This document shows positions 1 through 19,739 of a DNA stretch of 64,000 nt, in pieces; within the stretch, counting starts at the first letter, position 1; each line of letters opens with the position of its first letter. The notes beneath the pieces were generated by a model. That model did not search any database, was not told the DNA's origin, and saw only the letters and a program-made list of their open reading frames with translations. Location: positions 132,413 to 196,412 of the forward strand of contig JAIEPX010000012.1 in assembly GCA_019748175.1 (NCBI GenBank). The letters run 5' to 3'. A program made the position numbers and the translations under genes. The stretch comes from Gammaproteobacteria bacterium (GTDB lineage: Bacteria; Pseudomonadota; Gammaproteobacteria; JAIEPX01).

Positions 1-144
1 CATATCAAGGTCAGTTTTGTTGGATATTTCTATAGATCCAATGGTAACGCCAGCTCGATTGATGACTGCTTCCTTCGCGTCAGCTGCAAAAACTGAACTG
101 TGAGCAAGCAGAACTAAACTGAATCCTAAAATTTGTACTTTCAT
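1..144 (-). CDS. Partial CDS for the 5' end of a secreted protein of unknown function. The N-terminus MKVQILGFSLVLLAHSSVFA-ADAKEAV is a signal peptide. The gene runs off the left edge of the window.
   Basis: There is an ATG at 144..142 on the minus strand, preceded by AGGAAGAGG. The translation gives a hydrophobic h-region and a VFA-A cleavage motif. It is absent from the ORF track because only 48 codons lie in the window. Confidence 0.45.
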   Translation of the reverse strand, partial: MKVQILGFSLVLLAHSSVFAADAKEAVINRAGVTIGSIEISNKTDLDM

Positions 145-225
145 TGCCTCTTCCTTGAACAATAAACTTATCTTTAAGTAAAGCAGACCTTATGAGATTG
201 TCAAATTATGCTCTGTCTTTATCTA
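43..225. repeat. Left copy of a ~183-bp imperfect direct repeat, about 90% identical to 12793-12975.
   Basis: Direct alignment of 43-225 with 12793-12975 shows only scattered substitutions. The copy contains the RBS and first ~34 codons of the minus-strand secreted-protein gene, plus a TTGACA on the minus strand. Confidence 0.8.
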
Positions 226-237
226 TGAAAGAAATAA

Positions 238-2646
238 CTAAGACTTCACTCTAAGCGATAAAAGCCATGCTGATAACATATGAGTTAAACCAATACTCGT
301 AATAGGTTTTGTCAGTACATTATCGATTCCAGCTTGCAAGCACTTTTCTCTATCATTTTCGGAAGCATACGCAGTTAATGCTATAACGGGCGTATGATGA
401 TCATTTTTTTCTAACTCTCGAATTTTTTGTGTCACAACAAAACCATCCATATCCGGCAGCCCAATGTCCATTAAGATAAGATCGTAGGTATTCTTTTTAA
501 ACAACTTCAAGGCTAATATGCCATTATCAGCTACATCCGCTTTACAGCCCAAATCTTTCAAGAAATGAAGGACTACTCGTTGATTAATTAAATTATCTTC
601 GACGAGAAGAATTTTTGGATTAATATCGGCGAAAAGTTTTGAGGCATGTGTTAAACTTGCTTGATATTTTTCCCAGCAAGATGCTAAGTGCACTATAAAT
701 TTATTGTCATAACCGGCAATATGAATGAAATCAAAAATACCATTATCATTCTTTTCTAATTTTTGATTCTTATCAGAATAAAGTAATAACATAGGATTAT
801 ATAACGCAGGAAGAGCCTCCTTTAACTTGCCTAAATTTCCTTTATTATAAAAATGTGAATGGTTTGAAAGCAATATTAGCTGATAATGATGATTGCGTTT
901 TGCGGCATTTTCAAGAGCGTCAAATGCACTCGAACTTGACACTAAAGATACTGAAGAAGTATGGATAAGCTGTAATATTTTTGTGCCCACACTAAGATCA
1001 TCATCTACAATTAAAATTTTCACCTGAGCATACTTGCTTGCCCATAAATTTGATTTGTTAAGTTGAGGCTGGGCTGTAAATGTTAAATTTACTGTAAATG
1101 TTGTTCCCTTATTGAATTTACTATCAACGAAAATTTCACCTTTCATTAGTTCTACCAATTGCTTCACGATGGCAAGACCTAAACCTGTACCACTATGAAG
1201 CTTACTATAGGAAGAATCTAACTGACGAAAGCGGTCGAAAATTACCTCAATTTGATCTGAGGGAATACCAATACCTGTATCTTTAATGATAAAAGACAAT
1301 GTATATTTTCTATTCGACCTCTCTAAAAACTTCACTATCAAATCAGCTTTACCATGATCCGTAAACTTAACCGCATTACCTAATATATTAAGTAGTATTT
1401 GGTAAAGTCTTTGACTATCTCCAAGTAACAATGTCGGTACATCACCATCTATTTTTGTAGATAAAGTAATATTCTTTTGACCCGCCAGTGTTGATACTTG
1501 TTTTATTACACTATCAATTATGTACACTAAATCGAAAGGAGTATTAATGATTTCTAATTCACCGGCCTCAAGCTTTGAAAGATCAAGAATACTGTTGATA
1601 AGTGATAATAATGTTTTTCCAGAATTAGTGATATCTTCAACTAACAAGATTTGATCAGTTGAAAGCTTTTGTCTTGATAAAAGTTCGGTCATCCCGATGA
1701 TACCATTTAATGGCGTTCTTAATTCATGGCTAACCGTCGCCAAAAAGTCAGATTTGGCTTGATTTGCTATTTCAGCCTTTTCACGTGCCTCAACAAGTTC
1801 ATTTTCTTTCTTAACACGATCAGTAATATCTGTAGAAATACCAATGACACCGACAATCTTGCCATGTTCATTTCTAAACGGCACTCGAGTTGTAGTTTGG
1901 TAAATGATTTCACCATTAGAAGTTGTTAAGAAATTGATATTTTCGTTGGGTTTACCTGTTTTCATTACTTCCAGGTCATTTGATCGCCACAATTTTGCCT
2001 GTTCTTTTGGCCAATTTCGAATTTTAGCCATATCATAATACGTTAAACCTCTTACTTCTTTTCGAGAATTAAAACCGAGAATCTTTGCTAAATTATCATT
2101 ACAGCCTAGATTTGCAGAATTTTTATCGACCCAATAAACGTTAGAAGGTAAATGAGCTAAGATTCTATCTAACTGAAGTGCTGCAAGTTTAGTTTCTTTT
2201 TCAGCGGACCTAATCATTTTTTCCAATTGTTTTTCTTTCTTATTATGCTCTGTGATATCGATCATCTGAACGATGATGCCAGTCACTTTCTTTTTCACAC
2301 AGATAGGCTTATGTATACAAGACACTAGAATTTTTTTGCCTTTTTTCAACGGTATCCAGAGCACATGCTCATATTTTTTATTGTTTTCGAGCACTTTATT
2401 ATCATAAGACCTTAATTCTTCGAAGACACCCGCGTGAATTAAACTATTTTTTTGTATCTTGCTATAGTTTTTACCAAGTAATTTTTGTTTCGTTTTTAGG
2501 CCTAATAATTTCAACATGCTGTCATTGCAGCCTAAAATCACACCTGAGGCATCTTGCCAATAGATATAACTTGATAAATTCGCTATAATTTCACAAATAT
2601 TTTTTGTTTTCATGTCACCCTTCATGTTACTCAACGATGAGATCAT
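238..2646 (-). CDS. Hybrid sensor histidine kinase/response regulator. It has two PAS domains, HisKA and HATPase_c domains, a degenerate pseudo-receiver and a C-terminal REC domain.
   Basis: The H-box is HELRTPLNGIIGMTELL and the G-box is GTGLGLAIVKQL. A second REC domain has LILMDIGLPDMDG and a conserved TAYA/K. The PAS-like N-terminal halves contain YWQDASG and YWVDKNS. AGGAG lies 8 nt before the ATG at 2646. Confidence 0.85.
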   Translation of the reverse strand: MISSLSNMKGDMKTKNICEIIANLSSYIYWQDASGVILGCNDSMLKLLGLKTKQKLLGKNYSKIQKNSLIHAGVFEELRSYDNKVLENNKKYEHVLWIPLKKGKKILVSCIHKPICVKKKVTGIIVQMIDITEHNKKEKQLEKMIRSAEKETKLAALQLDRILAHLPSNVYWVDKNSANLGCNDNLAKILGFNSRKEVRGLTYYDMAKIRNWPKEQAKLWRSNDLEVMKTGKPNENINFLTTSNGEIIYQTTTRVPFRNEHGKIVGVIGISTDITDRVKKENELVEAREKAEIANQAKSDFLATVSHELRTPLNGIIGMTELLSRQKLSTDQILLVEDITNSGKTLLSLINSILDLSKLEAGELEIINTPFDLVYIIDSVIKQVSTLAGQKNITLSTKIDGDVPTLLLGDSQRLYQILLNILGNAVKFTDHGKADLIVKFLERSNRKYTLSFIIKDTGIGIPSDQIEVIFDRFRQLDSSYSKLHSGTGLGLAIVKQLVELMKGEIFVDSKFNKGTTFTVNLTFTAQPQLNKSNLWASKYAQVKILIVDDDLSVGTKILQLIHTSSVSLVSSSSAFDALENAAKRNHHYQLILLSNHSHFYNKGNLGKLKEALPALYNPMLLLYSDKNQKLEKNDNGIFDFIHIAGYDNKFIVHLASCWEKYQASLTHASKLFADINPKILLVEDNLINQRVVLHFLKDLGCKADVADNGILALKLFKKNTYDLILMDIGLPDMDGFVVTQKIRELEKNDHHTPVIALTAYASENDREKCLQAGIDNVLTKPITSIGLTHMLSAWLLSLRVKS

Positions 2647-2702
2647 CCTAAAACTCCTGTAATCTCTGGATACAGAATAACGTTACATGCCACACTATTA
2701 CG

Positions 2703-2730
2703 TTTACATGTTAATATATTCCAGGCTATA
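2703..2730 (+). promoter_or_regulatory. Putative sigma70-like promoter for the NRPS gene: TTTACA, a 16-nt spacer, then TATAAT.
   Basis: TTTACA is at 2703-2708 and TATAAT at 2725-2730, within the 200-bp divergent intergenic region. No experimental support is available. Confidence 0.3.
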
Positions 2731-2847
2731 ATGAAACAATTTAAGAGACTTGCTTTCGTCCTGGATACACTTTACATCGTAGCGACCGTCAACTAAATAC
2801 TCTATCAAAGCAAGATTAGTATCTTACCTTCAGGATGTATTGATAAT

Positions 2848-5800
2848 ATGGCAAAGGCTACAAGTACTGAAAGTATTAAATGCGTCGTTATAGGCAAAAA
2901 CAGCCTCGCTTTGGAATGTGCGAGCCGGTTGTTTAGTAACCCAAATTTCACTCTAGTTTCAATTGTTTCACCTGATCCACAGCTCGAATCACTGGCTGTA
3001 TCGAATAATATTCCTTACTATAAAAACACAGACACTTGGATTCAATCAGAGCTAAAAACCAAAATTGATTATTTATTCAGCATAATTCATGAAGATATTT
3101 TGACTGACGAGATCCTCCAGCTACCTCGCCGGGGAGCTATCAATTTCCATGATAGCCCATTGCCCCGTTATGCAGGACTCCATGCAACATCATGGGCAAT
3201 TCTAAACAATGAAAGCACCCATGGAGTTACTTGGCATATGATGTCAGGCAAAGTTGATTCGGGGGATATAGTAAAACAAAAAAGAGTTGAAATACTCCCA
3301 GACGATACAGCACTCGTACTAAACATGAAATGTTATGAAGCCGGTTTAGAACTATTCAACGAACTGTTAGAAGATCTTCAACGTGTTTATCTTATCACTC
3401 AACCTCAAGATTTATCTAAGAGAACTTACTACGGATACACTGCTAAACCTCCACTAGGCGGAATCATTAATTTTAATGATACCAGCCAAAATATCTATCG
3501 CAGTTGGCGATCAATGTATTTTGGACATACTCTCAATGATTTTGCTTCCTGTAAGTTTTTTATCGGAACCCGATGTTTCATCATCCAGGAAATGCAAATT
3601 AAGGCCTCCAGTTCAGATTGTGAACCTGGTCAAATAATAGAAATTACTAATGACCACATTCAAATAGCCACCAAAACAGGCGATGTATTCATAACCTCAC
3701 TAAAAACCCTGGATGGGCACCCTTGTAATTTTCTTAATCTAAAAAAATTGACCCAATTAAGTGAAGGAGACACTATTTCTCACCATGATATCGCTCTAAT
3801 GGAAAAAATATCTTCTAAAATTACCCAATTATTTCCACATGAACGTTACTGGGTGGATGAGCTTTGCGCCATTAATCCCACAAGCTTTCCATACTTTTCT
3901 CATCCGACTACAAAATTTAAAATAACAAGCCAAAAAAAGCTTGATCTTGAACCTCTACTGAGCCACAAAAATCAACATTTTGATTGGGAAATTTCTTATC
4001 TATGCATTCTGTCAATATATTTATTTCGCATCACAAATAAAAATAACATAACACTAGGCATTTACAGACCACAACAAAATACTGAAATCAACACAAGTTT
4101 CTTTTCAGATATCGTTCCACTCAATCTGCATTTCGAACCTCAAGACACGTTTTTAGATTTATATGCTCAGATTGAAAAAAAAATAAATCAAGTAACTACA
4201 CATTCAACATTTTTAAATGACATTACCTATCGTTATCCTGACTTAACTGATATATCAACTAGTCATCCAGGAATATATCCGTGCCTAATCGAGTATATTA
4301 ACAAAAAAGAACCTCAATTAAAGTCACAACTAGAATTAACAACCTCATATTTCAAATTGACAATTGACACTGCCAACAGGGAATACGTACTTGCACTAGG
4401 TTCTTCTAAAAACGAAGAAATTAAACCTAAAGAATTATTAGATAAAATACATTCTCATCTCTTTAATTTGCTTGATTCTATCAAAAATAATATTTTAACA
4501 CCAATTATTGCTCATTCATATTTAGATAAAAAAGAAATTCAACAATTACTACCTGCAAAGATAGATGATACAAAAAATATTCTTAATTCAAACGTTATAC
4601 AACTCTTTAAGGAGCAAGTTAATCGTTATGGAAATCATCTCAGCATAATTTCCTCTGAACACTCATTAACTTATGAAGATCTGGATAACCAATCTAATCA
4701 CCTTGCAGCGTATATTCTAGAGCATGTAAAATCCCCGCAAAAATCAATAGCTTTAATAATGAATCAGTCTGATACTGCAATTATATCGATGCTTGCAATA
4801 CTAAAAATTAATTGCATATATGTTCCACTAAACCCAGATAATCCTACAAACAGACTGCGATATATTCTTAAAGACGTTGATGCTGCAATGGTTCTCACTA
4901 ATACCCAGAATTTACAAGTAACTCATGCATGCACTGAAAACCTCAATATTCCGGTACTTAATGTTGAGAATACTGAAATACTTGACCAATACTCACTACC
5001 TACAAATCATCAAGTCAAAATATTACCTGATGACCTGGCGTACATATTATACACTTCAGGATCAACAGGTGATCCCAAGGGCGTTCAGATTTACCATAAA
5101 GGAATTGTGCGATTAGTCAAGGAGCAAAATTATGTACAGTTTACTCAAAATGATATTGTTGCTCAATTCACTACGCTAATTTTTGATGTATCAACTTTTG
5201 AAATTTGGGGAGCATTACTGAACGGATCCACCTTATTTATCATTGATAAAACTCTAGGTTTAGAACCAGAAAAATTACATAATATTATTAGAGATAATTG
5301 TACAATCTTGTTCATGACCCCAGCAGTTTTCGTGGAAGTTTATAAAGCCGAGCCAGATACTTTTGATAACCTGAGAATATTGATTCTAGGAGGAGAAGTT
5401 GTTCGAAGTGAAGATGTTCGAAGGCTTTTAAAGAGAAAAGAAGAGCTGAATCTAAATCTCACTATCATAAACGGGTATGGCCCTACTGAAAATACAACTT
5501 GGTCAACATATTATACTATCGATAAACTCAAACCAGGTCGTGATAGCATCCCAATTGGAAAATCTATTTCATACAGCTCAGCTTATATACTTGATAATTA
5601 TTTCAATCTACTTCCAGTCGGAGTTCCAGGCGAATTGTATCTAGGAGGACTTGGAATCGCTAAAGGTTATATTAACCACGAACAACTGACTCAAAAAGCA
5701 TTTATTAAAGACCCGTTTTCAAAGGGCAATACACTGTATAAAACTGGCGACATAGTGAAAATGCTACCAGATGGGAACATTCTTTTCATTTCTCGAATAG

Positions 5801-8800
5801 ATAGTCAAGTTAAAATAAAAGGAATTAGAGTCGAATTAGGTGAAATTGAAAGTTGGCTGTTAAAATATCATTCTGTCAAACAGGGAGTTGTCGTCTCCAA
5901 ACCAATTAAATCAAACAGACATCAATTAATTGCATATATTGTACCAGAAAGTCAACATTTCAACATAGTTGAATTGCAACATTACTTGTCTCAACATTTG
6001 CCAGAATACATGGTACCCTTACAGTATGTCATCATCGATAATTTTCCTTTGTCACCTAGCAAAAAGATTGACCATTCAAAACTGCCTGATCCATTACCTC
6101 TTGATGCAAAGAACTATCAAGCTCCACGAAATGATAAAGAAGCCTTATTAGTCAAAATATGGAGTCAAATATTAAGAATAAAACACATAGGCAGAAATGA
6201 TAATTTTTTTGCAATGGGTGGCGACTCAATCATCGCAATGCAAATAATCACAAAAGCGTACCATGATGGCTGGAAATTAAAAGCAGCTGATATTTTTCAT
6301 TACCCCTGCATATCAAAACTTGCCCCACGTCTAAAACCAATACAATCAAAGACGTCAAATGAAAGTATAACAGACACGATTGAAGGAAATATCCCCTTAA
6401 CACCAATTCAACATTGGTTTTTCGAGTCTGCATATTCCATGACATCAAGTTTTAGTCAATATGTATTACTTAAATTAGATGCAAAACCAGATGAATCAAT
6501 TATTGAAAAAACCTTCGACGCACTTATTCAACACCATGACATCTTACGAACCTTCTATGAGAATTCAGAAGGTCACTGGCAACAAACTATTAATAGCATA
6601 GTTGAACCATTCAAAGTAAATCACGACACACTTGCCAGCAAAAAGTATGACTCTAAAATTGCTGAAATGGAAAGTAAAATATCTAAAACATACTCTAAAT
6701 TTAAACTAGACCAGCCTCCTTTAGTGAGATGTGTACTGTTTAGCGGATCAAATGATAATTACCTCGCAATAATCGCACACCATCTAGTAATTGACGGGGT
6801 TTCTTGGAGAATATTCTTAGACGATTTCTTCATGGCATACCATACTTATTATCATAACAAAACAATTCCACTTCCAATAAAATCATCCTCTTTTAAATCA
6901 TGGAGTAAGTACCTCTGTGAATTTTCATCATCAATTACCTTGTTAAATGAAACCAATTACTGGCTACAGCAATCATCTGATAATGAAATACCAACTGATT
7001 TTAGACGAGGCGAAAATACTGAGAAAAATGCAAAAACTATCGAAAGTGAACTCGACCTTACCAATATAAGCTTAACATATAAGCAAGTAAGCGCGAGGGA
7101 TATATTAACTACAGCATTGGCAATCACATTGTGTGATTATTTTGATCTAAATGAAATTAATTTTTACATGGAGAGCCATGGTCGTGAAACCTTCAATAGC
7201 AAACTTGATTTATCACGGTCTATGGGATGGTTTACCTCTCTTTCACCTATAAAATTATCATTAGAATCTTCACAAAATAAAATTCAATATTTAAACATGC
7301 TCAGAAATGTCCGTAAAAAAATTGGCAATATTCCGCGACAAGGCATTGGCTTTGGATTAGTCAAATATCTTACAGAAGATCTTAACACTCGCAAAATAGT
7401 GAATGACATCTTAGTTTCCTCAATGTGTTTTAATTTTCTTGGGAATTTTGATGCTGGGATCAATACTAGTGACATGCAATTGGTTGGACGCCCAATTAGA
7501 TTAACAGACTCGGCGACTTCTTTACGGCAATTTTTGATTGAATTAACAGCGTGGATCAAAAACGATAAGTTACATTTGGAATGGAAATATAGTGCTAATT
7601 ATTACAAAGCCTCTACAATCCAAGCAGTTTCCAACCACTACATAAAAAATATTAATTCTATCGTTTCTCAATGTATCAATTCACTATCACAAACGTTGGT
7701 GTCTCACGACTTCCCACTAGCCTCCCTCACTCAGGAACAATTAAGTATCTGCATTACTAAATACCCTAATTTAGAAAATATTGCTCAGCTTTCTTCGTTA
7801 CAAAGTGGTTTGTTGTTCCACCACTTACAATATCCTGACAGTAATATTTATCACTCTCAATATATTTGGACAGATACCCGCGCTTTAGATTTGCGGGTAT
7901 TTAAAAAGGCTTGGGAAACCATTATCAAACGCCATAGTATATTTAGAACCACCTTCCTTTGGAAACATTTCAAATCTCCTATTCAGATTGTCGATTCAAC
8001 GATCAAATTACCGTGGAAAAATTATATTTGCTCTTCATTATCACGAGAAGCAAAAAAGGCGATGATAAATGCGATACTTCGCGAAGATCAAGAACGTTAT
8101 TTTGACTTTTCAGATCATCCTCTGATGCGATTAAGTATTATTCAAACCAACCCAAGTACATACGTCATAGTTTGGACACATCATCATATTTTACTTGGCG
8201 CGTCTAGTATAAAAAATGTCATTTCAGAATTATATCTAATATACCACGCCCTTCTTTCAGATCAACAATACTACCTACCTCCAGCGGTACCTTTTTCCGA
8301 ATACATCGCTTATCAAAATCAAAAATTTAATCATAAATTAAGTAAGCGTTTTTGGATAAAATACTTAAATAGATTTAATAGTATCGCAATAACAAAATTA
8401 CTCGGTGAAATTCATGAAAATACATCCCCGGACTTTCATCAACATGAGTTCGTAATACCCGATAAGTACGCATCTAAAATCAAAAAGTTTTCAAAGTCCT
8501 GCAACACCTCGCTTAACACCGTAATGTTATACGCATGGGCTTTACTGATCTCACGATACACTGACTCATTGGACATTAGCGTCGGTGTTGCGATTTCAAC
8601 AAGACCTAATGATTATTTCACTAATGAAAGCATCATCGGTCCGCTCATTAATACACTACCGTGCAGAATTACACTCGAAGATGATGAGCCATTGCAGCAA
8701 TCACTTAAGCGGATAAATGACAACATCCTTGATATAACACAACATTCTCATACAGCACTGTTAGATATCTATAAGTGGCTTAAACGAAATACACAAGACC

Positions 8801-11800
8801 AACTTTTCGATACGCTTTTCGTTTTTGAGAATTACCCCTTGGATTTTATTGATGAACATATCAGTGAATTAAAAGTCAACGCGATTACTCATTATCCACT
8901 CGTCCTTAATGTATACCCTCATGATAAAATTCAACTGGTTATGACATATAACAAAAATGTTATATGTACAACTATAATTGAAAACATTATGACAAATTAT
9001 TACCACACCCTCTGCGAAATTATTGATGATAATATACGTAATACTAAGGATATTGATATACTTTCAATTACTGAATCATCATTGCTAAAAAACTCTTGGA
9101 ACCATCGAAAATCAGATTATCCTCATTTCACTATCACGAACCTTTTTACGGAAATAGCAAACCTATATCCATCTAAAACTGCGATCACCTATCAAAATGA
9201 AAAACTGACGTACGATAAACTTGATAAAGTGACCAATCGCTGGGCTAATTATCTCCTTGAAAATGGTTTAAACAAGGGTGATGTTGTCGCTGTTTATATT
9301 GATAGAAGTATTGAAATGGTAATTGCCCTTTTAGCAATACTTAAAGCTGGGGGTGTTTATTTACCAATTGATACAACTTACCCCACCTATAGGGTTAATT
9401 ACATACTCGATGATGCGGGTGCTAAATTCATATTCACTCAATCTTCATTATTAGGTATTATCGATCCTAAATATCTAAGCCTATCCATTGATATTCTTAA
9501 TAGCAACCTTATTACAACTGTTTATGACAACCTCCCATTAATAGAATTATCCTATAGTGATCTGATTTATATCATTTATACCTCAGGCACTACAGGCTTG
9601 CCAAAAGGCATACAGATTCAACACAAAAGTGTAATCAATACAATCTACTCAATATTTAGAGAATTAAAACTTTCTTCAAATGATAAATTACTATCATTCA
9701 CAAGTATCTCATTTGACATATCTGCACTCGAAATATTTGGGCCATTGCTTTGGGGAATGGAGCTTGAAATTGCAAGCTCTGAATCTACAAAAACTAATTC
9801 TTCTCTCACTAAACTTATGAACGAAAGCTCTCCAACTATAATTCAAGGTACCCCTAGTCTTCTATTCTTAATGGTAAATGCGGGTTGGAAACCTAAAAAA
9901 GGAATTAAAATCATCTCGGGTGGAGAGACGCTCACGCAAAGCTTGGCTAATTCAATCTTAGCTATGGGTGCAAATTTATGGAATGTATACGGACCTACAG
10001 AAACGACAATTTGGTCTACTATCTCTCGTGTATATTCAAATAAAAAGATCGTAATAGGTAAACCTATTGCAAATACAGCTATCTATATCTTAGATCAAAG
10101 ACAAAAAATAGCACCGATTGGCGTTCCAGGAGAGCTTGTAATTGGTGGAGATGGTATAACTCCAGGATACATTAATAGACCCGAACTAAATAAGAAACGT
10201 TTTATTCCAAACCCCTATTCTAGCTCAGTAGCAGAAAGACTGTATCGCACAGGTGATTTAGCTAGGTGGCTACCTTCAGGCGAACTAGAGTTTATTGATC
10301 GACTAGACAATCAAGTTAAAATACGTGGGTATCGAATTGAACTAGAAGAAATTCGTACTATCTTACTAAAATTCACATCGATCAAAGATTGTGTTGTATT
10401 AAAAGTTGGGGATAATTATAATGAAGCTCATTTGAAAGCATTTTTCACTTTAAAAAATCCAAATATGAATTTTGACATATCAGACTTACGCACGCATCTC
10501 GCTTCATATTTACCGTACTACATGATTCCTGATGAGTTTATTCCCGTTGAAGGGATACCAATCAATACAAATGGAAAGGTCGATAAAGAGCAAATCTTGC
10601 AACTATATGCATCTCATCATAAAAAAGACATCGGGAATTATAACCCCGTTGAAAACCCGACCGAACAACTAATCTTAAATCTATTTAATAAAGTACTCTC
10701 TGCAAAAAATATTGAACCTAATGATAGTTTTTTTGAACTCGGTGGTAATTCTATCTCAGCAATTCAGATATTATCGAATATACAAGATTGCTTCTCAATA
10801 TCTTTATCTTTGCCTGATATTTTAACCTTACAAACTCCACGACAATTAGCCAAAGCTATAATTCATAAAAAATTTCAAAATCTTGATAGCTACGAAAACA
10901 TCACTTCTCCTATAGTTGGTTTACAATTAAAAGGAGATAAACCACCATTATTTTTAATTCACCCTGTAGGTGGAACAATATTCTGGTTTGTTAAACTCGC
11001 ACAATATTTAGGTAAAGATCGACCAATTTATGGATTACAAGATCCTGCTTTATCTACAGAGAGAGCTCATTTTTCTACTTTCGAAGCAATGGCTACATTC
11101 TATGCTAAAGAAATTAAAAACATTCATCCAAATGGTCCTTATCTTCTGGCAGGTGCATCCTTCGGTGCAAATATGGCAGCAGAAATCGCAAAACAATTGA
11201 TCGCTGAAGGTAAAAAAGTCTTATTTGTAGGACTACTAGATGGGTGGGCAGAATACCCTGACGAAGTTTCTACACATCGTTTTTTGAAAAAAGAGATGAA
11301 AGCGCAGTATAATGAGCTAAAGAAGAAACTTCCTGAAGTTAATAATAACAGTATTAAACCTATTATTGACTTTGCATGGCATCGTTCACATTTACTTGAT
11401 GCCTATAGTCTCGATTGGATTGATTGCCCTCTAGTACTATTCAAAGCGAAAAGTACCTTAAGTATTTTCTCTGACATCGAGTCCCCAAGTAACCACTGGA
11501 CAGGAAGGACTCCATACTTAAAAACCATTATAGCCCCAGGTAACCACGAAACTATGTTTTTCGATCCAAATGTTGAAACACTAGCCAAACAAATAAACAC
11601 TGCTATTCATGATAGTGAAAATATGGGAAATCACGATTCTCACAATAATGCATTTTTCAATGATTCAGATATATCTTATCCAAGAATAACTGTGATTGAG
11701 ATGTTCGAATCCATTGCTGAAAAAGAATATAGCTCATTTGCCGCAGTAAACAATGGGATATGCTTGACGTATGAAAAATTAAATAATCTGGCAAACCAAC

Positions 11801-12792
11801 TCTCTCACTATCTTATAGATTTGGATATCACACAAGGTGATATAGTTGGTATTTGCCTGAATCGTGATTTTGATTTACTCATTGCTATTCTGGCTGTCTT
11901 AAAATCTGGCGCCGCTTTTTCACCCATAAACTGTGATATAACTCCTAGTAGTATCGATTCTGTCCAACTAAGTTGTAGAGCAATCATTACAGAAAAAGAT
12001 TTTCTGAGAAAATTCAGTACTCTTGATAACAAAATGATCTGCCTCGATAGGGACTGGCAGTTTATTCGACTCAAATCAAGTGATAACCCATTAATACCTA
12101 TTAATCTCGATGATATAGCAATCGTTATACCAACATCTCACTCACAGCACAGCCAAACACGCATTTTGGTCAGCCACAGAAACATCAGTATTTTAACACA
12201 ATGGTCTTTGTCACAATTCACAAAAGAGGAACTATCTGGCGTATTAGCTTCAAATCACCATTACAATGAAATGTCGTTATTTGAAATATTCCCAGCTTTA
12301 TGTGCTGGAGGAACAGTACATCTTGTAAGAGATATAGAAAATCTATCGGAAGTCCCTTTTTCCAATAATATTACACTGATTTCTATCACACCAGCACAGT
12401 TAAATAACCTTTTATATACTGATCAATTACCTCAATCTGTACGAACTATCATTTTACAAACTCGCTCGGTGGATAATGCTGCTATCTCAAATATTGTAAA
12501 TACATCCCACGTTATTAAATTATGCAACGCCTTTATCAATATGGAAGTCGGCCAACTCACTCCAGGATTATTACCGAAACCTATCAATACACAGACAGTC
12601 ATTGGAAAGCCAATACCTAACGCAAAATTAGTCGTACTTAATAAAAACTTAGAGACCCTCCCTGCTGGATCCCCTTCAGAAATGAACAAATTTGGATATG
12701 TACTCTGTTTAGGCTATTTGAATTTTTCTGATTTCACAACTGAAGAATTACTTACCAATCCTAATTTACAATCCTCAATTTCAAATGAGTAA
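2848..12792 (+). CDS. Bimodular non-ribosomal peptide synthetase with an N-terminal formyltransferase-like (F) domain. Domain order is F-(unassigned ~280 aa)-A1-T1-E-C-A2-T2-TE, followed by a degenerate A-domain N-terminal stub.
   Basis: The F domain has FHDSPLPRYAG and HMMSGKVDSGDIV (Fmt-like). A1 has LAYILYTSGSTGDPKG, NGYGPTE, YKTGD and KIKGIRVELGEIE. T1 has FFAMGGDSI and the E domain has HHLVIDGVSWRIF. The C domain has HHILLGASS. A2 has YIIYTSGTTGLPKG, YGPTETT, YRTGD and KIRGYRIELEEI. T2 has FFELGGNSI and the TE has GASFGAN. Residues ~2945-3314 keep A1/A2-like cores (LTYEKL, LKSGAAFSPIN) but lack cores A3 and A5-A10. Confidence 0.9.
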   Translation: MAKATSTESIKCVVIGKNSLALECASRLFSNPNFTLVSIVSPDPQLESLAVSNNIPYYKNTDTWIQSELKTKIDYLFSIIHEDILTDEILQLPRRGAINFHDSPLPRYAGLHATSWAILNNESTHGVTWHMMSGKVDSGDIVKQKRVEILPDDTALVLNMKCYEAGLELFNELLEDLQRVYLITQPQDLSKRTYYGYTAKPPLGGIINFNDTSQNIYRSWRSMYFGHTLNDFASCKFFIGTRCFIIQEMQIKASSSDCEPGQIIEITNDHIQIATKTGDVFITSLKTLDGHPCNFLNLKKLTQLSEGDTISHHDIALMEKISSKITQLFPHERYWVDELCAINPTSFPYFSHPTTKFKITSQKKLDLEPLLSHKNQHFDWEISYLCILSIYLFRITNKNNITLGIYRPQQNTEINTSFFSDIVPLNLHFEPQDTFLDLYAQIEKKINQVTTHSTFLNDITYRYPDLTDISTSHPGIYPCLIEYINKKEPQLKSQLELTTSYFKLTIDTANREYVLALGSSKNEEIKPKELLDKIHSHLFNLLDSIKNNILTPIIAHSYLDKKEIQQLLPAKIDDTKNILNSNVIQLFKEQVNRYGNHLSIISSEHSLTYEDLDNQSNHLAAYILEHVKSPQKSIALIMNQSDTAIISMLAILKINCIYVPLNPDNPTNRLRYILKDVDAAMVLTNTQNLQVTHACTENLNIPVLNVENTEILDQYSLPTNHQVKILPDDLAYILYTSGSTGDPKGVQIYHKGIVRLVKEQNYVQFTQNDIVAQFTTLIFDVSTFEIWGALLNGSTLFIIDKTLGLEPEKLHNIIRDNCTILFMTPAVFVEVYKAEPDTFDNLRILILGGEVVRSEDVRRLLKRKEELNLNLTIINGYGPTENTTWSTYYTIDKLKPGRDSIPIGKSISYSSAYILDNYFNLLPVGVPGELYLGGLGIAKGYINHEQLTQKAFIKDPFSKGNTLYKTGDIVKMLPDGNILFISRIDSQVKIKGIRVELGEIESWLLKYHSVKQGVVVSKPIKSNRHQLIAYIVPESQHFNIVELQHYLSQHLPEYMVPLQYVIIDNFPLSPSKKIDHSKLPDPLPLDAKNYQAPRNDKEALLVKIWSQILRIKHIGRNDNFFAMGGDSIIAMQIITKAYHDGWKLKAADIFHYPCISKLAPRLKPIQSKTSNESITDTIEGNIPLTPIQHWFFESAYSMTSSFSQYVLLKLDAKPDESIIEKTFDALIQHHDILRTFYENSEGHWQQTINSIVEPFKVNHDTLASKKYDSKIAEMESKISKTYSKFKLDQPPLVRCVLFSGSNDNYLAIIAHHLVIDGVSWRIFLDDFFMAYHTYYHNKTIPLPIKSSSFKSWSKYLCEFSSSITLLNETNYWLQQSSDNEIPTDFRRGENTEKNAKTIESELDLTNISLTYKQVSARDILTTALAITLCDYFDLNEINFYMESHGRETFNSKLDLSRSMGWFTSLSPIKLSLESSQNKIQYLNMLRNVRKKIGNIPRQGIGFGLVKYLTEDLNTRKIVNDILVSSMCFNFLGNFDAGINTSDMQLVGRPIRLTDSATSLRQFLIELTAWIKNDKLHLEWKYSANYYKASTIQAVSNHYIKNINSIVSQCINSLSQTLVSHDFPLASLTQEQLSICITKYPNLENIAQLSSLQSGLLFHHLQYPDSNIYHSQYIWTDTRALDLRVFKKAWETIIKRHSIFRTTFLWKHFKSPIQIVDSTIKLPWKNYICSSLSREAKKAMINAILREDQERYFDFSDHPLMRLSIIQTNPSTYVIVWTHHHILLGASSIKNVISELYLIYHALLSDQQYYLPPAVPFSEYIAYQNQKFNHKLSKRFWIKYLNRFNSIAITKLLGEIHENTSPDFHQHEFVIPDKYASKIKKFSKSCNTSLNTVMLYAWALLISRYTDSLDISVGVAISTRPNDYFTNESIIGPLINTLPCRITLEDDEPLQQSLKRINDNILDITQHSHTALLDIYKWLKRNTQDQLFDTLFVFENYPLDFIDEHISELKVNAITHYPLVLNVYPHDKIQLVMTYNKNVICTTIIENIMTNYYHTLCEIIDDNIRNTKDIDILSITESSLLKNSWNHRKSDYPHFTITNLFTEIANLYPSKTAITYQNEKLTYDKLDKVTNRWANYLLENGLNKGDVVAVYIDRSIEMVIALLAILKAGGVYLPIDTTYPTYRVNYILDDAGAKFIFTQSSLLGIIDPKYLSLSIDILNSNLITTVYDNLPLIELSYSDLIYIIYTSGTTGLPKGIQIQHKSVINTIYSIFRELKLSSNDKLLSFTSISFDISALEIFGPLLWGMELEIASSESTKTNSSLTKLMNESSPTIIQGTPSLLFLMVNAGWKPKKGIKIISGGETLTQSLANSILAMGANLWNVYGPTETTIWSTISRVYSNKKIVIGKPIANTAIYILDQRQKIAPIGVPGELVIGGDGITPGYINRPELNKKRFIPNPYSSSVAERLYRTGDLARWLPSGELEFIDRLDNQVKIRGYRIELEEIRTILLKFTSIKDCVVLKVGDNYNEAHLKAFFTLKNPNMNFDISDLRTHLASYLPYYMIPDEFIPVEGIPINTNGKVDKEQILQLYASHHKKDIGNYNPVENPTEQLILNLFNKVLSAKNIEPNDSFFELGGNSISAIQILSNIQDCFSISLSLPDILTLQTPRQLAKAIIHKKFQNLDSYENITSPIVGLQLKGDKPPLFLIHPVGGTIFWFVKLAQYLGKDRPIYGLQDPALSTERAHFSTFEAMATFYAKEIKNIHPNGPYLLAGASFGANMAAEIAKQLIAEGKKVLFVGLLDGWAEYPDEVSTHRFLKKEMKAQYNELKKKLPEVNNNSIKPIIDFAWHRSHLLDAYSLDWIDCPLVLFKAKSTLSIFSDIESPSNHWTGRTPYLKTIIAPGNHETMFFDPNVETLAKQINTAIHDSENMGNHDSHNNAFFNDSDISYPRITVIEMFESIAEKEYSSFAAVNNGICLTYEKLNNLANQLSHYLIDLDITQGDIVGICLNRDFDLLIAILAVLKSGAAFSPINCDITPSSIDSVQLSCRAIITEKDFLRKFSTLDNKMICLDRDWQFIRLKSSDNPLIPINLDDIAIVIPTSHSQHSQTRILVSHRNISILTQWSLSQFTKEELSGVLASNHHYNEMSLFEIFPALCAGGTVHLVRDIENLSEVPFSNNITLISITPAQLNNLLYTDQLPQSVRTIILQTRSVDNAAISNIVNTSHVIKLCNAFINMEVGQLTPGLLPKPINTQTVIGKPIPNAKLVVLNKNLETLPAGSPSEMNKFGYVLCLGYLNFSDFTTEELLTNPNLQSSISNE

Positions 12793-12894
12793 GGTGACGT
12801 CAGCTCGATTGATGACTGCTTCCTTCGCATCTGCCGCAAAAACTGAACTTTGAGCAAGTAGAGCTAAACTGAATCCTAAAATTTGTACTTTCAT
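12781..12894 (-). pseudogene. Truncated remnant of the secreted-protein gene 5' end (37 codons) inside the right-hand repeat copy. It overlaps the NRPS stop codon.
   Basis: The minus-strand ATG at 12894 gives MKVQILGFSLALLAQSSVFAADAKEAVINRADVTLLI*, a near-identical signal peptide to the 1..144 ORF. It ends after ~34 homologous residues. Confidence 0.5.
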
Positions 12895-12975
12895 TGCCTC
12901 ATCCTTGAACAATAAACCTATCTCTAAGTAAAGCAGACCTTTAGAGATTGTCACATTGCGCTGTGTCTTCGTCTA
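12793..12975. repeat. Right copy of the ~183-bp direct repeat. It begins 1 nt after the NRPS TAA.
   Basis: It aligns along its whole length to 43-225. The flanks on both sides are unrelated. Confidence 0.8.
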
Positions 12976-13064
12976 GATTCGACCTTTTTCACACATCAGT
13001 TAATATTATCTTAAGGTTCTATGGGTAATATATCCGATTATTGTATGAAAAGCTTGGGGATTGT

Positions 13065-13859
13065 ATGAACGAAAGTACTCCTGTAAAAGAACCTATCGAT
13101 AAATCAGACCTTGTAAAACACTTTGAAGCCGGGGATTTACTGTTTGGGTTAGAAAACGAAGCTCGAGCCCTTTACTATGAAATTATTCGTCTTCAGTTAA
13201 GTAAATCAGACTCAACAATATTGTTTATCACCGTGGATGACATCAATAAAGAACTCTCTGCAGAATATATGTTTGGTGCAGAGGCTGAATCGCCAAAAAA
13301 TAAACAAACACAATATAATGCTTTTGCACAAAGACATCTTGATTCATGGAAAGCACACAAGAAGTTTGCTCCGAAAATGATTACTGAGAAAGGTGAAGCA
13401 AGAGCAGACAAAGCATTTATTTATTCTTGTAAAGTGGCTCTTTTAACACACAGCAGTAAAATACATTTCTGTTTAGACTTCTTCCAGCCCGAAGCTATAC
13501 GAAACAAAGCACACGACAACTATAAAAGTTACACATCCAAAGAATTAAGACTCTGTGCTAAAAATTGGGAACAAGTTAAAAATAGAGTTGTGTTTTATAT
13601 GGATGGCATGAGATGCAGTCCTCCTTGGGGAGAACGTGAACCTCTTGAGTGGTTAAATGACAAGAGTTCAATGACTCAATCCAGTGATTTAGATCAGAGT
13701 AGCCCATTACCTGAAGCATCACTTAAAACGCCACCTCATGGGAGTCAAAATTTTTTCAAAATGCCCACTTCAATATCCCCAGATTCAGATATCACGGAGA
13801 CCTCTCAAGAAAGTAAAAAAGATATCGATGCCATTGCAAAAAAGAAGTTGGATTTCTAA
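13065..13859 (+). CDS. Hypothetical protein. The ORF-track start at 13041 is TTG; the ATG at 13065 (MNESTPV..) is the likelier start.
   Basis: GGGGA lies 5 nt upstream of the ATG at 13065. No recognisable domain was found. The C-terminus is polar, Ser/Glu-rich. Confidence 0.5.
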   Translation: MNESTPVKEPIDKSDLVKHFEAGDLLFGLENEARALYYEIIRLQLSKSDSTILFITVDDINKELSAEYMFGAEAESPKNKQTQYNAFAQRHLDSWKAHKKFAPKMITEKGEARADKAFIYSCKVALLTHSSKIHFCLDFFQPEAIRNKAHDNYKSYTSKELRLCAKNWEQVKNRVVFYMDGMRCSPPWGEREPLEWLNDKSSMTQSSDLDQSSPLPEASLKTPPHGSQNFFKMPTSISPDSDITETSQESKKDIDAIAKKKLDF

Positions 13860-13914
13860 CTGGACGATTCCTCTTCACTCAGCAATACAATTAAGTAGTC
13901 GTATCAATGGAATA

Positions 13915-14859
13915 TTAGTCTAAACATAACAGAGATTCGCGCGTAAAATATTCTTCTTGATAATGAGAGCGAACCCATTTTTTATAAAGTTCTAGTGCCT
14001 CAGTTTCAATACTTGCGATTCGCGTAGAATTGCCTTTATTATGCACTATAGTATTCTTAATATAGTCTTTCATTGTTAAAATTGAATCAAATGATTCATT
14101 TAAGAGTGATGCAAGCTGATTTCCATGTAATGCATTGAATGAATCATTTAAATAGTACTTCCCAAGCCTTTCCGCAAGAAGTATAGCGAAATAGGCTTCA
14201 TAAAGATATTTGTAGAAAAGTCTGCCGCTCTTTTCAACTTGGCCAAAATACTTGAATAAAGGAAGATTGAGATTAGCCAACATCAAAAATCCTGCAGCCC
14301 CGAATTGCCTTCCAATAATATATAAGTTACCGCTAAATTTATTATACTCACTAAGATCAACTTTTTTATCTTCCGCTAGCGCCCTATCTGCTAAAACAAT
14401 AATTTCATTTAAATAATCACAAAATGCGTGAAAATTATAGCTTGAGAGAGCTTTCATTAAGTAAAGTTTGGATGTGGCTTGACCTGAAGTAGTCTGTACT
14501 CTTTGTAACTCAAGATGTTTACTATAATAAAAAACACCTTTAATTAAAAAATAACTTAATAGGCTAGACTGTGGCTTTAATTGATAACATGCAAGTTGAC
14601 CATCCAATTCTAACAAAGATAGATAATCTTCTGAAGTGATAAGCGTATCCCAAAAACTACTGAGCGTATCGTCACAGCAAAGCGTCTCTAAATCTGCTTC
14701 CAGACTCGTGGCTTCCAAAAACATGGGAAGTGACTGAACTGCATAATATTGAACAAAATCAATAAGAACGTCGTTCGACTGTTTTTTAGCCAACACTCTT
14801 TGATGTAAATCTCTAAATTTTTCTACAATAGAATTATGCGATAATCCTTTCTTATTCAT
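13915..14859 (-). CDS. Hypothetical protein of 314 aa.
   Basis: There is a long ORF with a strong AAGGAGG RBS before the ATG at 14859. No recognisable motif was found. Confidence 0.55.
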   Translation of the reverse strand: MNKKGLSHNSIVEKFRDLHQRVLAKKQSNDVLIDFVQYYAVQSLPMFLEATSLEADLETLCCDDTLSSFWDTLITSEDYLSLLELDGQLACYQLKPQSSLLSYFLIKGVFYYSKHLELQRVQTTSGQATSKLYLMKALSSYNFHAFCDYLNEIIVLADRALAEDKKVDLSEYNKFSGNLYIIGRQFGAAGFLMLANLNLPLFKYFGQVEKSGRLFYKYLYEAYFAILLAERLGKYYLNDSFNALHGNQLASLLNESFDSILTMKDYIKNTIVHNKGNSTRIASIETEALELYKKWVRSHYQEEYFTRESLLCLD

Positions 14860-15024
14860 ATATGCCTCCTTGCATTTTGTATGAAGAATATACCAGATAA
14901 ATGATTAGAAAGAAATAAGATAACGGCGTCGCGTCTAGGTTTTACAAAATCATTATTAACTTCTACTGTAAACTGAGACGTTTTGAGTATAGAATATGGC
15001 TGTTGAGCAGAAGGAATCTAAGCC

Positions 15025-15771
15025 ATGTCAATCATCATCATTCTCACCATGCTACTGGTTGCTGTAGCTAGTTTAATCTTAAATCGTAGACGTACTGGAA
15101 TATTTTTCAACCTAGTTACTTTGGTCTTATTCTTACTGGCAGGCTCTGGATTACTCACTCAACTTACTCTCAATTCACTGCAATCACAGGCGCCCCTTGA
15201 AACGCCTCATTGGACAAAGCGAAACGCGATTTTGATTCTTGGGATAGGCACTACACAATGGCCTGCTACTTCACACATCTCCACGCATCCACTTGGATAC
15301 TCTAGGATTCACGAAGCTGCACGACTTTATTATCTCTGCAAAAAGCAAGCAGTCGTCTGTCGCGTCATCACTTCCGGGGGAGATCCAACAAAGCATGGCA
15401 CTGCAGAAGCCGCTGTTATGGCACGTGAGTTAATGGAAATTGGGGTGCCTTCTGCAGACATCATCATGGAATCTAAGAGCCGAAATACCTTTGAAAATGC
15501 AAAATTCTCCAGCGAACTTATTCGTTCACAAAATCTTGATAACCTCACCTTGGTTACCTCTGGCTTTCATATGAAACGATCTTTGCTATTATTCCAGGCG
15601 TTTGATTTATATCCCTTGCCAGCAGCCTCTGATCGATTATCAGCACATATCTCTCTGCTACCATTATCTCAGAATTTAGCCCTTCTTGACTTGGCTCTGC
15701 ATGAATATACCGGTATGGCACAGTACTACCTGTATAACTTTATGGGATGGAATTCAAAACCAAAAAAATAA
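15025..15771 (+). CDS. DUF218 / YdcF (SanA/ElyC)-family membrane-anchored protein.
   Basis: It has an N-terminal TM segment and the characteristic GGDPTKHG...SRNTFENA...TSGFHM core. AAGGAA precedes the ATG. Confidence 0.7.
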   Translation: MSIIIILTMLLVAVASLILNRRRTGIFFNLVTLVLFLLAGSGLLTQLTLNSLQSQAPLETPHWTKRNAILILGIGTTQWPATSHISTHPLGYSRIHEAARLYYLCKKQAVVCRVITSGGDPTKHGTAEAAVMARELMEIGVPSADIIMESKSRNTFENAKFSSELIRSQNLDNLTLVTSGFHMKRSLLLFQAFDLYPLPAASDRLSAHISLLPLSQNLALLDLALHEYTGMAQYYLYNFMGWNSKPKK

Positions 15772-15800
15772 TGGGGTCCTATCTTGAGATACGATGACTT

Positions 15801-16481
15801 TTATTTTTTTGTAGCCTTAATCAAATAAGTCTCTTCGTTTCCATCCGTAGCAGGAACCTGATGAACAATTTGAAAGTCGAAATTATCGGAAAAAGTTTTC
15901 ATTGGATTTATCTTTTCTACACGGCGTGAATAACTAATAAGAATACAGCCATCTGGATGTAAATGATGATAGCCAGTTTCAAAAAGATTGGTGCGCGCTT
16001 TAAATTGCGGGTCGTAAAAAGCGATTTCCATATTATTATTAGCTTCTGAGCTTTCCCAAGGTATAGAAGCAAGGATAATATCGAATTTAGAGTCGGGAGA
16101 AATATTAGAAAAACCATCGCTTAACAAGACCTGAACCTGATCAGCCACACCATTTACATTGCAATTGTGTTGTGTACATTGCACAGCCTTAGGATTGATA
16201 TCTATGGCTGTCACCTGCGCTCCATGTTTTGCAGCAAATATAGCAAGGATACCAGTACCGGTACCAAAATCTAAAACACGAACACCTGAACGAAGCATAC
16301 TAGTGCCTTTATCCTCTAAATATAGGAGCGTGATTTCATCAGTTTCTGGAGGATAGACGGTATCATCAACTTGTATAGGTATTCCGAATGCCTCCATGTT
16401 GTAAGGTGTTTTGCGCTTACAAAACTCACTAAGTAACGCATCAGCAACATGACTTCTTCCGTGAACAAACTCTTTTTTCAC
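15801..16481 (-). CDS. Class I SAM-dependent methyltransferase with a small MTS-type domain (HemK/RsmC-like).
   Basis: Motif I is VLDFGTGTGILAIFAA, followed by DINPKAV. The ORF-track start at 16487 is a TTG abutting the SD. The GTG at 16481, with AGGAG 7 nt upstream, is a more likely start. Confidence 0.65.
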   Translation of the reverse strand: MKKEFVHGRSHVADALLSEFCKRKTPYNMEAFGIPIQVDDTVYPPETDEITLLYLEDKGTSMLRSGVRVLDFGTGTGILAIFAAKHGAQVTAIDINPKAVQCTQHNCNVNGVADQVQVLLSDGFSNISPDSKFDIILASIPWESSEANNNMEIAFYDPQFKARTNLFETGYHHLHPDGCILISYSRRVEKINPMKTFSDNFDFQIVHQVPATDGNEETYLIKATKK

Positions 16482-16557
16482 TGTCAATCTCCTATGCCTA
16501 GAATAGTTCCTATAAATTCGATTTGGCTATGCGATTATTTTACCTTTGATAGTCAGA

Positions 16558-19720: not shown

Positions 19721-19739
19721 TCAACTATTCCCTTTACAA

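Follow-up and report, generated by a model that had tools for sequence, protein, structure and literature searches.

How a sensor kinase gene and a giant NRPS gene came to lie between two copies of the 5′ part of one secreted-protein gene is the question raised by a 64-kb stretch of DNA (the window) from an uncultured Legionella-like bacterium. The source of the window is a metagenome-assembled genome (MAG). A preliminary description had taken the arrangement for a cassette inserted or duplicated at this site, which could still excise and so act as an on/off biosynthetic island. Here we compare the locus with its counterparts in related bacteria and with known modes of insertion.

A kinase-NRPS block between two copies of a gene start

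The features of the locus are as follows.

1–144, minus strand: first 48 codons of a gene for a small secreted Cys-containing protein, the remainder lying past the left edge of the window
43–225: left repeat copy, 183 nt, comprising 81 nt of promoter, 5′UTR and SD and 34 codons; serves the functional gene
226–237: left junction spacer, 12 nt, separating the repeat from the kinase stop codon
238–2646, minus strand: hybrid sensor histidine kinase, PAS-PAS-HisKA-HATPase_c-REC (Pfam), full length
2647–2847: divergent intergenic region, 201 nt; 2703–2732 (TTTACA-18-TATAAT) resembles a promoter for the NRPS
2848–12792, plus strand: NRPS of 3314 aa with its domains assigned by Pfam, identical to P0001 (MBX9586952.1)
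12763–12792, plus strand: right junction tail, 9 codons (NLQSSISNE) and TAA, with no counterpart in orthologues
12781–12894, minus strand: stub ORF of 37 codons, signal peptide plus 17 residues, with ATG at 12894 and stop at 12781–12783
12793–12975: right repeat copy, 183 nt, which keeps the ancestral upstream flank
12976–13859, plus strand: ancestral right flank, a 65-nt intergenic segment and a 272-aa gene of unknown function

A repeat search returned 43–225 and 12793–12975 as a direct repeat of 183 nt with 90% identity; the window has no other long direct repeat. The copies are mismatched at 19/183 positions, the 81 nt that precede the ATG accounting for 11 of these and the 102 coding nt for 8. 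The two longest stretches of uninterrupted identity span 37 and 28 nt. The DNA flanking the two copies is unrelated on either side. The alignment that the preliminary description had asked for therefore upheld its ~183-bp direct repeats of ~90% identity with unrelated flanks, and translation confirmed that both contain the same SD-preceded start of a minus-strand gene: each copy holds the 5′UTR, SD, ATG and 34 signal-peptide codons.

On the minus strand the left copy reads MKVQILGFSLVLLAHSSVFAADAKEAVINRAGVT and stays open in frame up to the window edge. The gene is intact and encodes 137 aa, since P0122 (MBX9586950.1, K2X50_06800) starts with exactly the 48 residues present in the window, and its contig is listed at 206,919 bp, a length that is also on record for the NRPS of the window; the left copy does continue as a real gene, as had been supposed. 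The 137-aa protein matched no Pfam or NCBIfam family. Its orthologues are 77% (L001), ~66% (L007) and at least 90% (L009 type) identical, and in L001 and L009 the gene body aligns colinearly with the downstream flank of the left copy (42 down to 1). The right copy translates as MKVQILGFSLALLAQSSVFAADAKEAVINRADVT, followed by LLI and a stop. This stub is convergent with the NRPS gene and overlaps its last four sense codons; its length, its ATG at 12894 and its overlap with the NRPS stop codon had all been described correctly. The SD, ATG and first 10 codons of the stub are the same as in L009 and, with the promoter-proximal region included, 79 nt are unchanged.

The unique insert measures 12,567 bp (226–12792), or 12,750 bp counting one repeat copy. 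The extents given earlier for the kinase and NRPS genes were accurate; the NRPS TAA (12790–12792), placed 1 nt from the repeat in that account, directly abuts it at 12793. The insert ORFs of at least 80 aa are the kinase, the NRPS and three short opposite-strand ORFs nested inside the NRPS gene. None of the insert ORFs encodes an integrase, transposase or excisionase, and neither the kinase nor the NRPS has a Pfam recombinase domain. There are no tRNA or tmRNA genes in the window, and no inverted repeat pairs the insert ends at 226 and 12792.

The third codon positions of the insert have a GC content (GC3) of 0.280–0.285, as compared with 0.293 for alaS and 0.323 ± 0.049 for 42 other ORFs of the window, whereas overall GC is 0.345 versus 0.41–0.45 for alaS and recA. 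The AT-richness noted previously is thus real relative to these two genes, but it does not serve as evidence of horizontal origin, GC3 being 0.28 against 0.293. The composition of the insert is native-like and its lower GC is not diagnostic.

A MAG contig might mis-join DNA of two organisms or strains through a repeat common to both, and repeats are classic sites of misassembly. We regard such an artefact as highly improbable here: identity between the copies is only 90%, each is bordered by unique sequence on either side, and the insert agrees with the rest of the contig in codon-level composition. Moreover, neither cassette junction has sequence in common with the other or with the empty site found in relatives, so that a mis-join would need two independent chimeric events without shared k-mers.

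Empty sites and the conserved module in related bacteria

Relatives with an uninterrupted site, which the preliminary description had proposed to look for, were found, all of them in other species. A single copy of the segment is present in L009–L011 and L013 (the closest), in L001 and in L002, L007 and L008. At each empty site the 272-aa neighbour stands immediately beside an intact secreted-protein gene (137 aa), and the single copy runs colinearly into the right flank of the locus at one end and into the gene body that follows the left copy at the other. L009–L011 and L013 come from four sequencing runs, their secreted protein falls in the 90%-identity cluster of the window protein, and the empty site of L009 is shown across 4.3 kb. 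A fifth run gave L014, which is consistent over the length of its short upstream flank; a sixth gave L012, which starts only 91 nt upstream of the gene.

The 272-aa gene is 81% identical in L001 and 47% in L002 (tblastn), and 83% in L009 (alignment). From 12976 onward the window is colinear with L001 and L009, with identities to L001 of 81% (272-aa gene), 78% (DUF5630), 92% (DUF218) and 92% (alaS). The interval that houses the target gene is variable; alaS bounds it on one side and, in relatives, lysC-csrA on the other. An occupied locus was found in the window's own genome only. The species is represented by one MAG and yielded no empty-site allele of its own, and neither empty nor occupied relatives were found among JGI metagenome contigs.

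A PPTase-kinase-NRPS module is conserved at 53–66% identity in four contigs at two other chromosomal sites, between rpe and djlA-gshAB (L003 and L006) and between rluX and bamD-tamAB (L004 and L005). These copies have housekeeping genes on either side and no integrase annotated within 10 kb. The single-copy sites, together with the module at two other neighbourhoods, support the earlier view that the kinase-NRPS block was inserted here; its variant of a duplicated cassette was not borne out, the cassette having no second copy.

The kinase of the window is 62–66% identical to those of L003, L004 and L006, with a complete C-terminus. It has no Hpt domain, its sub-threshold NCBIfam matches are BarA/ArcB/LetS-like, and no response regulator or Hpt partner is present. 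The spacers between kinase and NRPS genes measure 171–207 nt in the orthologues. Where the window has 226–237, orthologous modules have the 3′ end of the PPTase gene, and a search of the window for a PPTase gene gave none. NRPS homology ends at 12762, ~50 codons short of the stop codons of L003 and L006, and this C-terminal loss of ~50 codons holds relative to two of three orthologues. Judged from these alignments, the insert is a trimmed form of the three-gene module, with the PPTase lost and the NRPS 3′ end cut.

Age and probable route of the insertion

Taken together, the region is very probably a fixed, ancient insertion of 12,567 bp into the 5′ part of the secreted-protein gene, at codon 34, accompanied by a 183-bp duplication. 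The block (226–12792) would have brought in two divergently transcribed genes, one for a hybrid sensor kinase with PAS domains and one for an NRPS of two modules, and the duplication would span the promoter, 5′UTR, SD and signal-peptide codons of the target. One repeat copy would thereby keep the target gene intact, the other leaving the 37-codon stub that faces the NRPS 3′ end.

The copies, which differ from each other at the 19 positions given above, differ from the single copy of L009 at 17 and 16, so that by this measure the insertion looks old: the copies have diverged mutually as much as each has from the single copy of a sister species. Changes private to the left copy number ten (−69, −64, −49, −30, −24, −7, +36, +45, +63 and +66) and those private to the right copy nine (−77, −76, −65, −60, −48, +32, +60, +95 and +99). 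The two sets are interspersed, the numbers being small. At least two derived states are common to both window copies against L009 and L001, and in the coding part the copies differ by 8/102 from each other and by 12 and 15/102 from L001. The shared derived states, and the greater closeness of the copies to each other than to L001, place the event in the lineage of the window.

These figures bear directly on the reversible island of the preliminary description, in which the 183-bp repeats would still recombine usefully, excising and re-integrating the block would switch the NRPS, and occupied and empty alleles would be mixed in the population. The repeats are correctly oriented and retain their identical stretches of 37 and 28 nt, the secreted-protein gene would be intact again after excision, relatives do have empty sites, and excision of prophage e14 recombines icd with icdC in a like manner (PMC13626634). 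Yet every empty site belongs to another species. Fourfold-site divergence between window and L009 is 0.27 and the range for the empty-site species 0.27–0.34, so these sites look ancestral and are not, it seems, products of excision. Nor does the single copy of L009 form a clean mosaic of the two window copies. The 10% drift between the copies argues for long co-residence without homogenisation or loss, no recombinase for excision is present, and the JGI contigs gave no empty or occupied relatives. Co-existing alleles were not found, and because no same-species empty-site allele turned up, on/off excision remains conjecture; we consider it quite improbable.

The absence of a recombinase, a tRNA or inverted repeats leads us to infer, for the old insertion that we favour, a recombinase-independent route. 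Insertion sequences and composite transposons fit poorly, as there are no terminal IRs and no transposase and the duplication is 183 bp versus 2–14 bp. The most likely route would be single-crossover (Campbell-type) integration of a circularised fragment that carried the 183-bp segment. In E. coli, single-crossover integration of circular molecules gave flanking duplications of 109–950 bp (PMC3240628). Likewise, a direct duplication of a host segment in the range of ~100–1000 bp brackets the insert, homology ends sharply and no dedicated recombinase is involved; the event in the window differs in being natural and ancient, in concerning a 12.6-kb biosynthetic module, and in that the copies are 10% diverged with no donor/recipient mosaic visible. 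Alternatively, the segment may have been duplicated in place during illegitimate insertion. A Campbell event with a diverged donor predicts a mosaic around one crossover, and with the private changes interspersed, in-place duplication followed by drift is no poorer a fit. Neither route cleanly predicts as much change in the functional left copy as in the dead stub. By either route, selection would then have retained only the arrangement preserving the secreted-protein gene.

The layout also recalls site-specific elements. Prophage e14 is flanked by icd and the icdC fragment pseudogene (PMC13626634); as with e14 (and phage 21) in E. coli icd, the displaced fragment stays as a stub and the repeats have diverged (PMC13626634), and in both cases the target gene is intact because a copy of its end was duplicated. 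In contrast to the present locus, where no recombinase is found, e14 has a site-specific recombinase of its own and is excised upon SOS induction, and it duplicates the 3′ end of the gene where the locus duplicates the promoter and 5′ end. A decayed element of this type, whose attP carried the 5′ end of the target and whose integrase is now gone or encoded beyond the insert, would account for the intact target gene on one side and the fragment pseudogene on the other, and for the left copy having as many private changes as the stub, as expected if it had already diverged on arrival. We nevertheless find it very improbable, for the insert ORFs include no integrase or excisionase, there is no tRNA, each end of the insert truncates or adjoins module genes and has no att-like sequence, and the two copies share derived states. 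The modules of L003–L006, too, sit between housekeeping genes with no integrase annotated nearby, and their unrelated sites mean that there is no recurrent att target. Genomic islands and prophages in general share with the locus a flanking repeat with a duplicated target-gene end; integrase, tRNA or recurrent att target and deviating composition are missing from it. Similarly, tRNA-associated islands and ICEs resemble it in having an accessory block between direct repeats and an empty site in relatives, and differ in that the locus has no tRNA target, integrase, mobility genes or compositional deviation, and the block only two genes.

A bolder reading is that the module is a recombinase-free mobile cassette, passing as a circle between Legionellales-like chromosomes, that integrates through a short captured piece of a host gene and rebuilds its target, and that the stub may fire antisense into the NRPS 3′ end. 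This we hold to be unlikely. If true, the captured-segment cassette would be an integrase-free functional counterpart of e14 at icd, and antisense transcription from the stub would couple the output of the NRPS to how the secreted-protein gene is regulated.

The synthetase and its predicted product

The 9.9-kb NRPS ORF remains open. The order of its domains is formyltransferase, A1, PCP, E, C, A2, PCP, TE and a degenerate A-core without PCP. Formyl_trans_N and Formyl_trans_C occupy residues 73–294 and are followed by AMP-binding and PP-binding (Pfam); the E domain was identified from motifs in the translation. Both A domains contain a 63-nt conserved motif, the other repeat family in the window. 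The next-best NRPS match is only 56% identical, and with F-domain NRPSs beyond its small clade the enzyme shares ~30% identity.

The best match of solved structure is LgrA (E = 7e-176), the formylating initiation subunit of linear gramicidin synthetase (F-A-PCP-C-A-PCP-E). As in LgrA, an N-terminal formyltransferase domain is fused to an A-PCP initiation module, and the second module has a glycine-like code. Unlike LgrA, the NRPS of the window has E after module 1, TE after two modules and an extra degenerate A-core after TE.

Because TE ends the line after two modules, a dipeptide is predicted. The specificity residues are DVFMIGGTWK for A1 and DILQIGVIWK for A2, the latter close to the glycine code; the product prediction depends on such codes. 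With low confidence, and from the sequence of these domains, we suggest an N-formyl D-Xaa-Gly dipeptide, probably formyl-D-(aliphatic residue)-Gly. The NRPS would then make a short N-formylated peptide released by the TE domain, a PPTase encoded elsewhere in the genome would prime it, and the kinase would presumably control its expression via a partner. Given the absent PPTase and the trimmed NRPS end, the synthetase could be impaired.

The locus represents a clear but fairly ordinary gene gain and reveals no new kind of element or switch. It offers a clean natural example of a biosynthetic gene added together with its own sensor and no recognisable mobile-element machinery, in which both junctions are visible, ancestral empty sites can be compared and the target gene survived the insertion. 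The kinase-NRPS pair and its PPTase appear to travel as a single unit among uncultured Legionella-like bacteria, and the predicted small N-formyl peptide would be of interest in organisms living inside eukaryotic hosts.

Direct repeats bracketing the kinase-NRPS block

The only long direct repeat of the 64-kb window is formed by positions 43-225 and 12793-12975, which were found by repeat search and align over 183 nt with 19 mismatches (90% identity). The flanks of the two copies are unrelated on both sides, as the preliminary description of this DNA had claimed. On the minus strand each copy comprises an upstream stretch of 81 nt that includes an SD, then ATG and 34 signal-peptide codons; translation has confirmed this part of the description as well. 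In the left copy the reading frame is open to the window edge, and the 48 residues encoded there match exactly the N-terminus of the secreted protein P0122 (MBX9586950.1, K2X50_06800, 137 aa), so that this copy does continue as a real gene, as proposed. P0122 and the NRPS P0001 are both recorded on a contig of 206,919 bp, and MBX9586950-52 carry the locus tags K2X50_06800-06810. In the right copy the shared sequence ends after codon 34 and the ORF stops after 37 codons, overlapping the final four NRPS codons. This stub had been correctly recognized, whereas the NRPS stop codon, placed 1 nt from the repeat in the earlier account, adjoins it directly. The two genes enclosed by the repeats have been found by domain search at the coordinates already assigned to them:

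238-2646, minus strand, hybrid kinase PAS-HisKA-HATPase-REC
2848-12792, plus strand, NRPS (P0001, MBX9586952.1)

Empty sites in relatives and the mode of insertion

Homologues of the secreted protein encoded by the target gene were sought with its 48-residue N-terminus in species-representative genomes and with a full-length orthologue in a protein database. The protein is rare, few relatives being found in the representative genomes and the protein database. The 48-aa N-terminus by itself gave no homologue in a protein search, and metagenome scans with an alignment of the secreted proteins or with the invariant 30-nt 5'UTR/ATG block gave no match. In eight contigs of related genomes (L001, L002, L007, L008, L009-L011 and L013) the target gene is intact and single-copy, and ~170 nt separate it from the orthologue of the 272-aa gene that adjoins the right flank in the window. 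In the longer contigs (L001, L002, L007 and L009) this orthologue is followed by DUF5630 and DUF218 genes in the same order as in the window; past them L002 carries alaS, recX and recA, and L001 parts of alaS and recX. The flank in L014 reaches no further than codon 41 of the neighbouring ORF, and L012 starts 91 nt upstream of the target gene. Nucleotide alignments fix both insertion junctions precisely: the sequence upstream of the right copy is colinear with the relatives' intergenic region, and that downstream of the left copy with their gene body.

The nearest relatives are represented by contigs L009-L014 (L009-type), with secreted proteins that share at least 90% identity with that of the window. 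These contigs stem from the six sequencing runs SRR27422804, SRR27422816, SRR27422827, SRR27422829, SRR36343558 and SRR36343559; their divergence from the window at 4-fold sites is 0.27, versus 0.34 for L001. The two window copies have at least two derived states in common against L009 and L001. Since the site is empty in two nested outgroups and derived states are common to both copies, the insertion occurred in the lineage of the window. Sequence comparison thus gives good support to the kinase-NRPS block being an insertion at the target gene. The cassette postulated previously is borne out by single-copy empty sites with conserved flanks (L001, L002, L007, L008 and L009-type), all of them in other species; an empty allele of the same species was not found among them. 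The interval between alaS and lysC-csrA varies among the relatives, which places the insertion in a plasticity zone flanked by core genes. When L007 (1-7029) is set against window 15801-16487 and L002 5440-6810, this interval of L007 is seen to encode a PIN-domain toxin pair and an ankyrin-repeat protein of 1028 aa.

An ORF and domain search revealed no integrase or transposase in the insert. There is no tRNA in the window, no inverted repeat pairing the two insert ends and no Rfam family in 1-13300. A plasmid origin was considered and rejected, the closest plasmid NRPSs being only 31-32% identical. The flanking duplication of 183 bp far exceeds a transposase-type target duplication, and lies within the range of 109-950 bp made experimentally by single-crossover integration of a circular molecule with partial homology (PMC3240628). 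In its layout, with an undamaged target gene at one end and a pseudogene fragment at the other, the insert matches the E. coli prophage e14 in icd/icdC (PMC13626634), but e14 has a recombinase and the window insert does not. The absence of mobile-element hallmarks, together with a duplication in the single-crossover range, favours a recombinase-independent event. Such an event could have been the Campbell-type integration of a circularised fragment bearing the 183-bp segment, or an illegitimate insertion during which the segment would have been duplicated in place. The private changes, of which the left copy has 10 and the right copy 9, are mixed along the segment, with no split around a single crossover point, a pattern in favour of in-place duplication and later drift. 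The functional left copy, however, has diverged to the same extent as the dead stub, and this would be easier to explain if the left copy came in already diverged.

The PPTase-kinase-NRPS module and its predicted product

Three relatives of the NRPS (P0002-P0004), at 53-56% identity, have nearly the same length and domain order. In all four contigs with such relatives (L003-L006) the NRPS is divergent from a 795-804-aa hybrid kinase, 62-66% identical to that of the window, and a gene for 4'-phosphopantetheinyl transferase (PPTase) is convergent on the kinase 3' end. The module lies between rpe and djlA-gshA-gshB in L003 and L006, and between a pseudouridine synthase gene and bamD-tamA-tamB in L004 and L005; these two differing housekeeping neighbourhoods indicate a conserved functional unit relocated more than once. 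Both ends of the window copy are trimmed. On its left, the junction is 12 nt past the complete kinase gene, and no PPTase gene is present anywhere in the window. Homology of the NRPS to L003/L006 ends at 12762, ~50 codons before their stops, and the following 30 nt of unrelated sequence provide nine codons and the TAA.

The NRPS domain order is formyltransferase, A1, PCP, E, C, A2, PCP, TE and a degenerate A-core domain, with the E-domain signatures HHLVIDGVSW, ESHGRE, GWFTS and FNFLG in the translation. Among solved structures the nearest is LgrA, the linear gramicidin synthetase subunit for formylating initiation, and the window NRPS also starts with a formyltransferase; a literature search for formylating NRPSs in Legionella gave no match. 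The specificity residues are DVFMIGGTWK in A1 and DILQIGVIWK in A2, the latter two residues off the common glycine code DILQLGLIWK. As the predicted product, the TE would release an N-formyl-D-(aliphatic)-Gly dipeptide whose aliphatic residue is expected to be Val/Ile-like. The adjacent PAS kinase may control the NRPS via a partner, and priming would depend on a putative PPTase encoded elsewhere. The specificity codes of the L006 orthologue differ from those of the window, and the product probably varies between species.

In the C domain (7800-8000) HHHILLGASS stands where the canonical HHxxxDG is expected, with the Asp and Gly positions substituted. The NRPS end (11700-12792) consists of the TE and an A-core-like domain without PCP, in which core motif A3 is degenerate (TSHSQHSQ replaces TSGTTG); this tail is kept in the three relatives at 53-56% identity and missing from relatives of ~2920 aa. 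Truncation as the origin of the odd C-terminal domain was largely rejected, the domain being common to P0002-P0004 and only the last ~50 codons missing in comparison with L003/L006. An A-core domain behind the TE is a native feature of the NRPS clade.

A second, paralogous pair is encoded in L001, the closest representative-genome relative, at 12855-20144, 3.5 kb from the secreted-protein gene. It comprises a PAS hybrid kinase of 810 aa, with 40% identity to that of the window, divergent from a formyltransferase-initiated NRPS (25% identical), and is adjoined by a 2OG-Fe(II) oxygenase gene. Kinase/F-NRPS pairs appear to be recurrent in these genomes.

The stub, the age of the insertion and its composition

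A 30-nt block TTTATTGTTCAAGGAWGAGGCAATGAAAGT covers the 5'UTR, SD and start codon in both copies (123-152 and 12873-12902, minus strand). It is invariant, directly upstream of the ATG, in L001, L002, L007 and L009-L014, even at only 50% N-terminal protein identity. Its AAGGA/GAGG core resembles a CsrA-type GGA site; csrA is two genes from the target gene in L007, and the block has no Rfam match. A perfect TTGACA is conserved within both repeat copies, and a sigma-70 consensus scan found no promoter within either. The 79 nt from -47 to +31 of the right copy (12847-12925) are identical to L009, and three changes fall in this stretch in the functional left copy. This unchanged stub 5' region may reflect chance (maximum-gap p ~0.06) or continued constraint. 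A terminator-like hairpin (12651-12674, minus strand) is located ~110 nt downstream of the stub stop within the NRPS coding sequence, the scan count being not above chance; a short antisense transcript could terminate there.

Between the two copies 19 of 183 positions differ, compared with 17 and 16 between each of them and the single copy of the sister species (L009), and the repeat segment and flanks differ between window and L009 by ~9-14%. The copies being as far apart as each is from L009, the insertion, if they were identical at the start, took place not long after the species split and would be very old. The NRPS ORF is open over 9.9 kb throughout, which implies purifying selection. It had been suggested that the island may switch on and off by excision between the repeats. 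RecA-dependent deletion between the copies is conceivable but should be inefficient, as the longest identical runs remaining are 37 and 28 nt. Switching has no support: every empty site found belongs to another species, and none resembles a right-copy/left-copy recombinant, with one genome of the window's species sampled.

The preliminary description was correct that the GC content of the insert (0.345) is lower than that of alaS/recA (0.41-0.45), but not in taking this as a sign of horizontal origin. Accessory genes beside the insert and many other window genes are equally low in GC, and GC3 of the insert (0.280-0.285) matches that of alaS (0.293) and falls within one SD of the mean for 42 other ORFs (0.323 ± 0.049). 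Composition as a sign of foreign origin was rejected, since the insert is indistinguishable in GC3 from native genes. Nothing in the composition points to a recent foreign origin, as would be expected of an old, ameliorated insertion. The 42-46 kb region is also AT-rich and deviates more than the insert; it includes the ORF with the lowest GC in the window (42103-43086, minus strand, GC 0.28, GC3 0.235).

The repeats are real and the insertion is well supported; neither the switch idea nor the compositional argument stands. The gain of an accessory gene block with a duplicated target on either side is a known kind of event, of which this is a tidy example, distinguished by the lack of recombination machinery and by its apparent great age.
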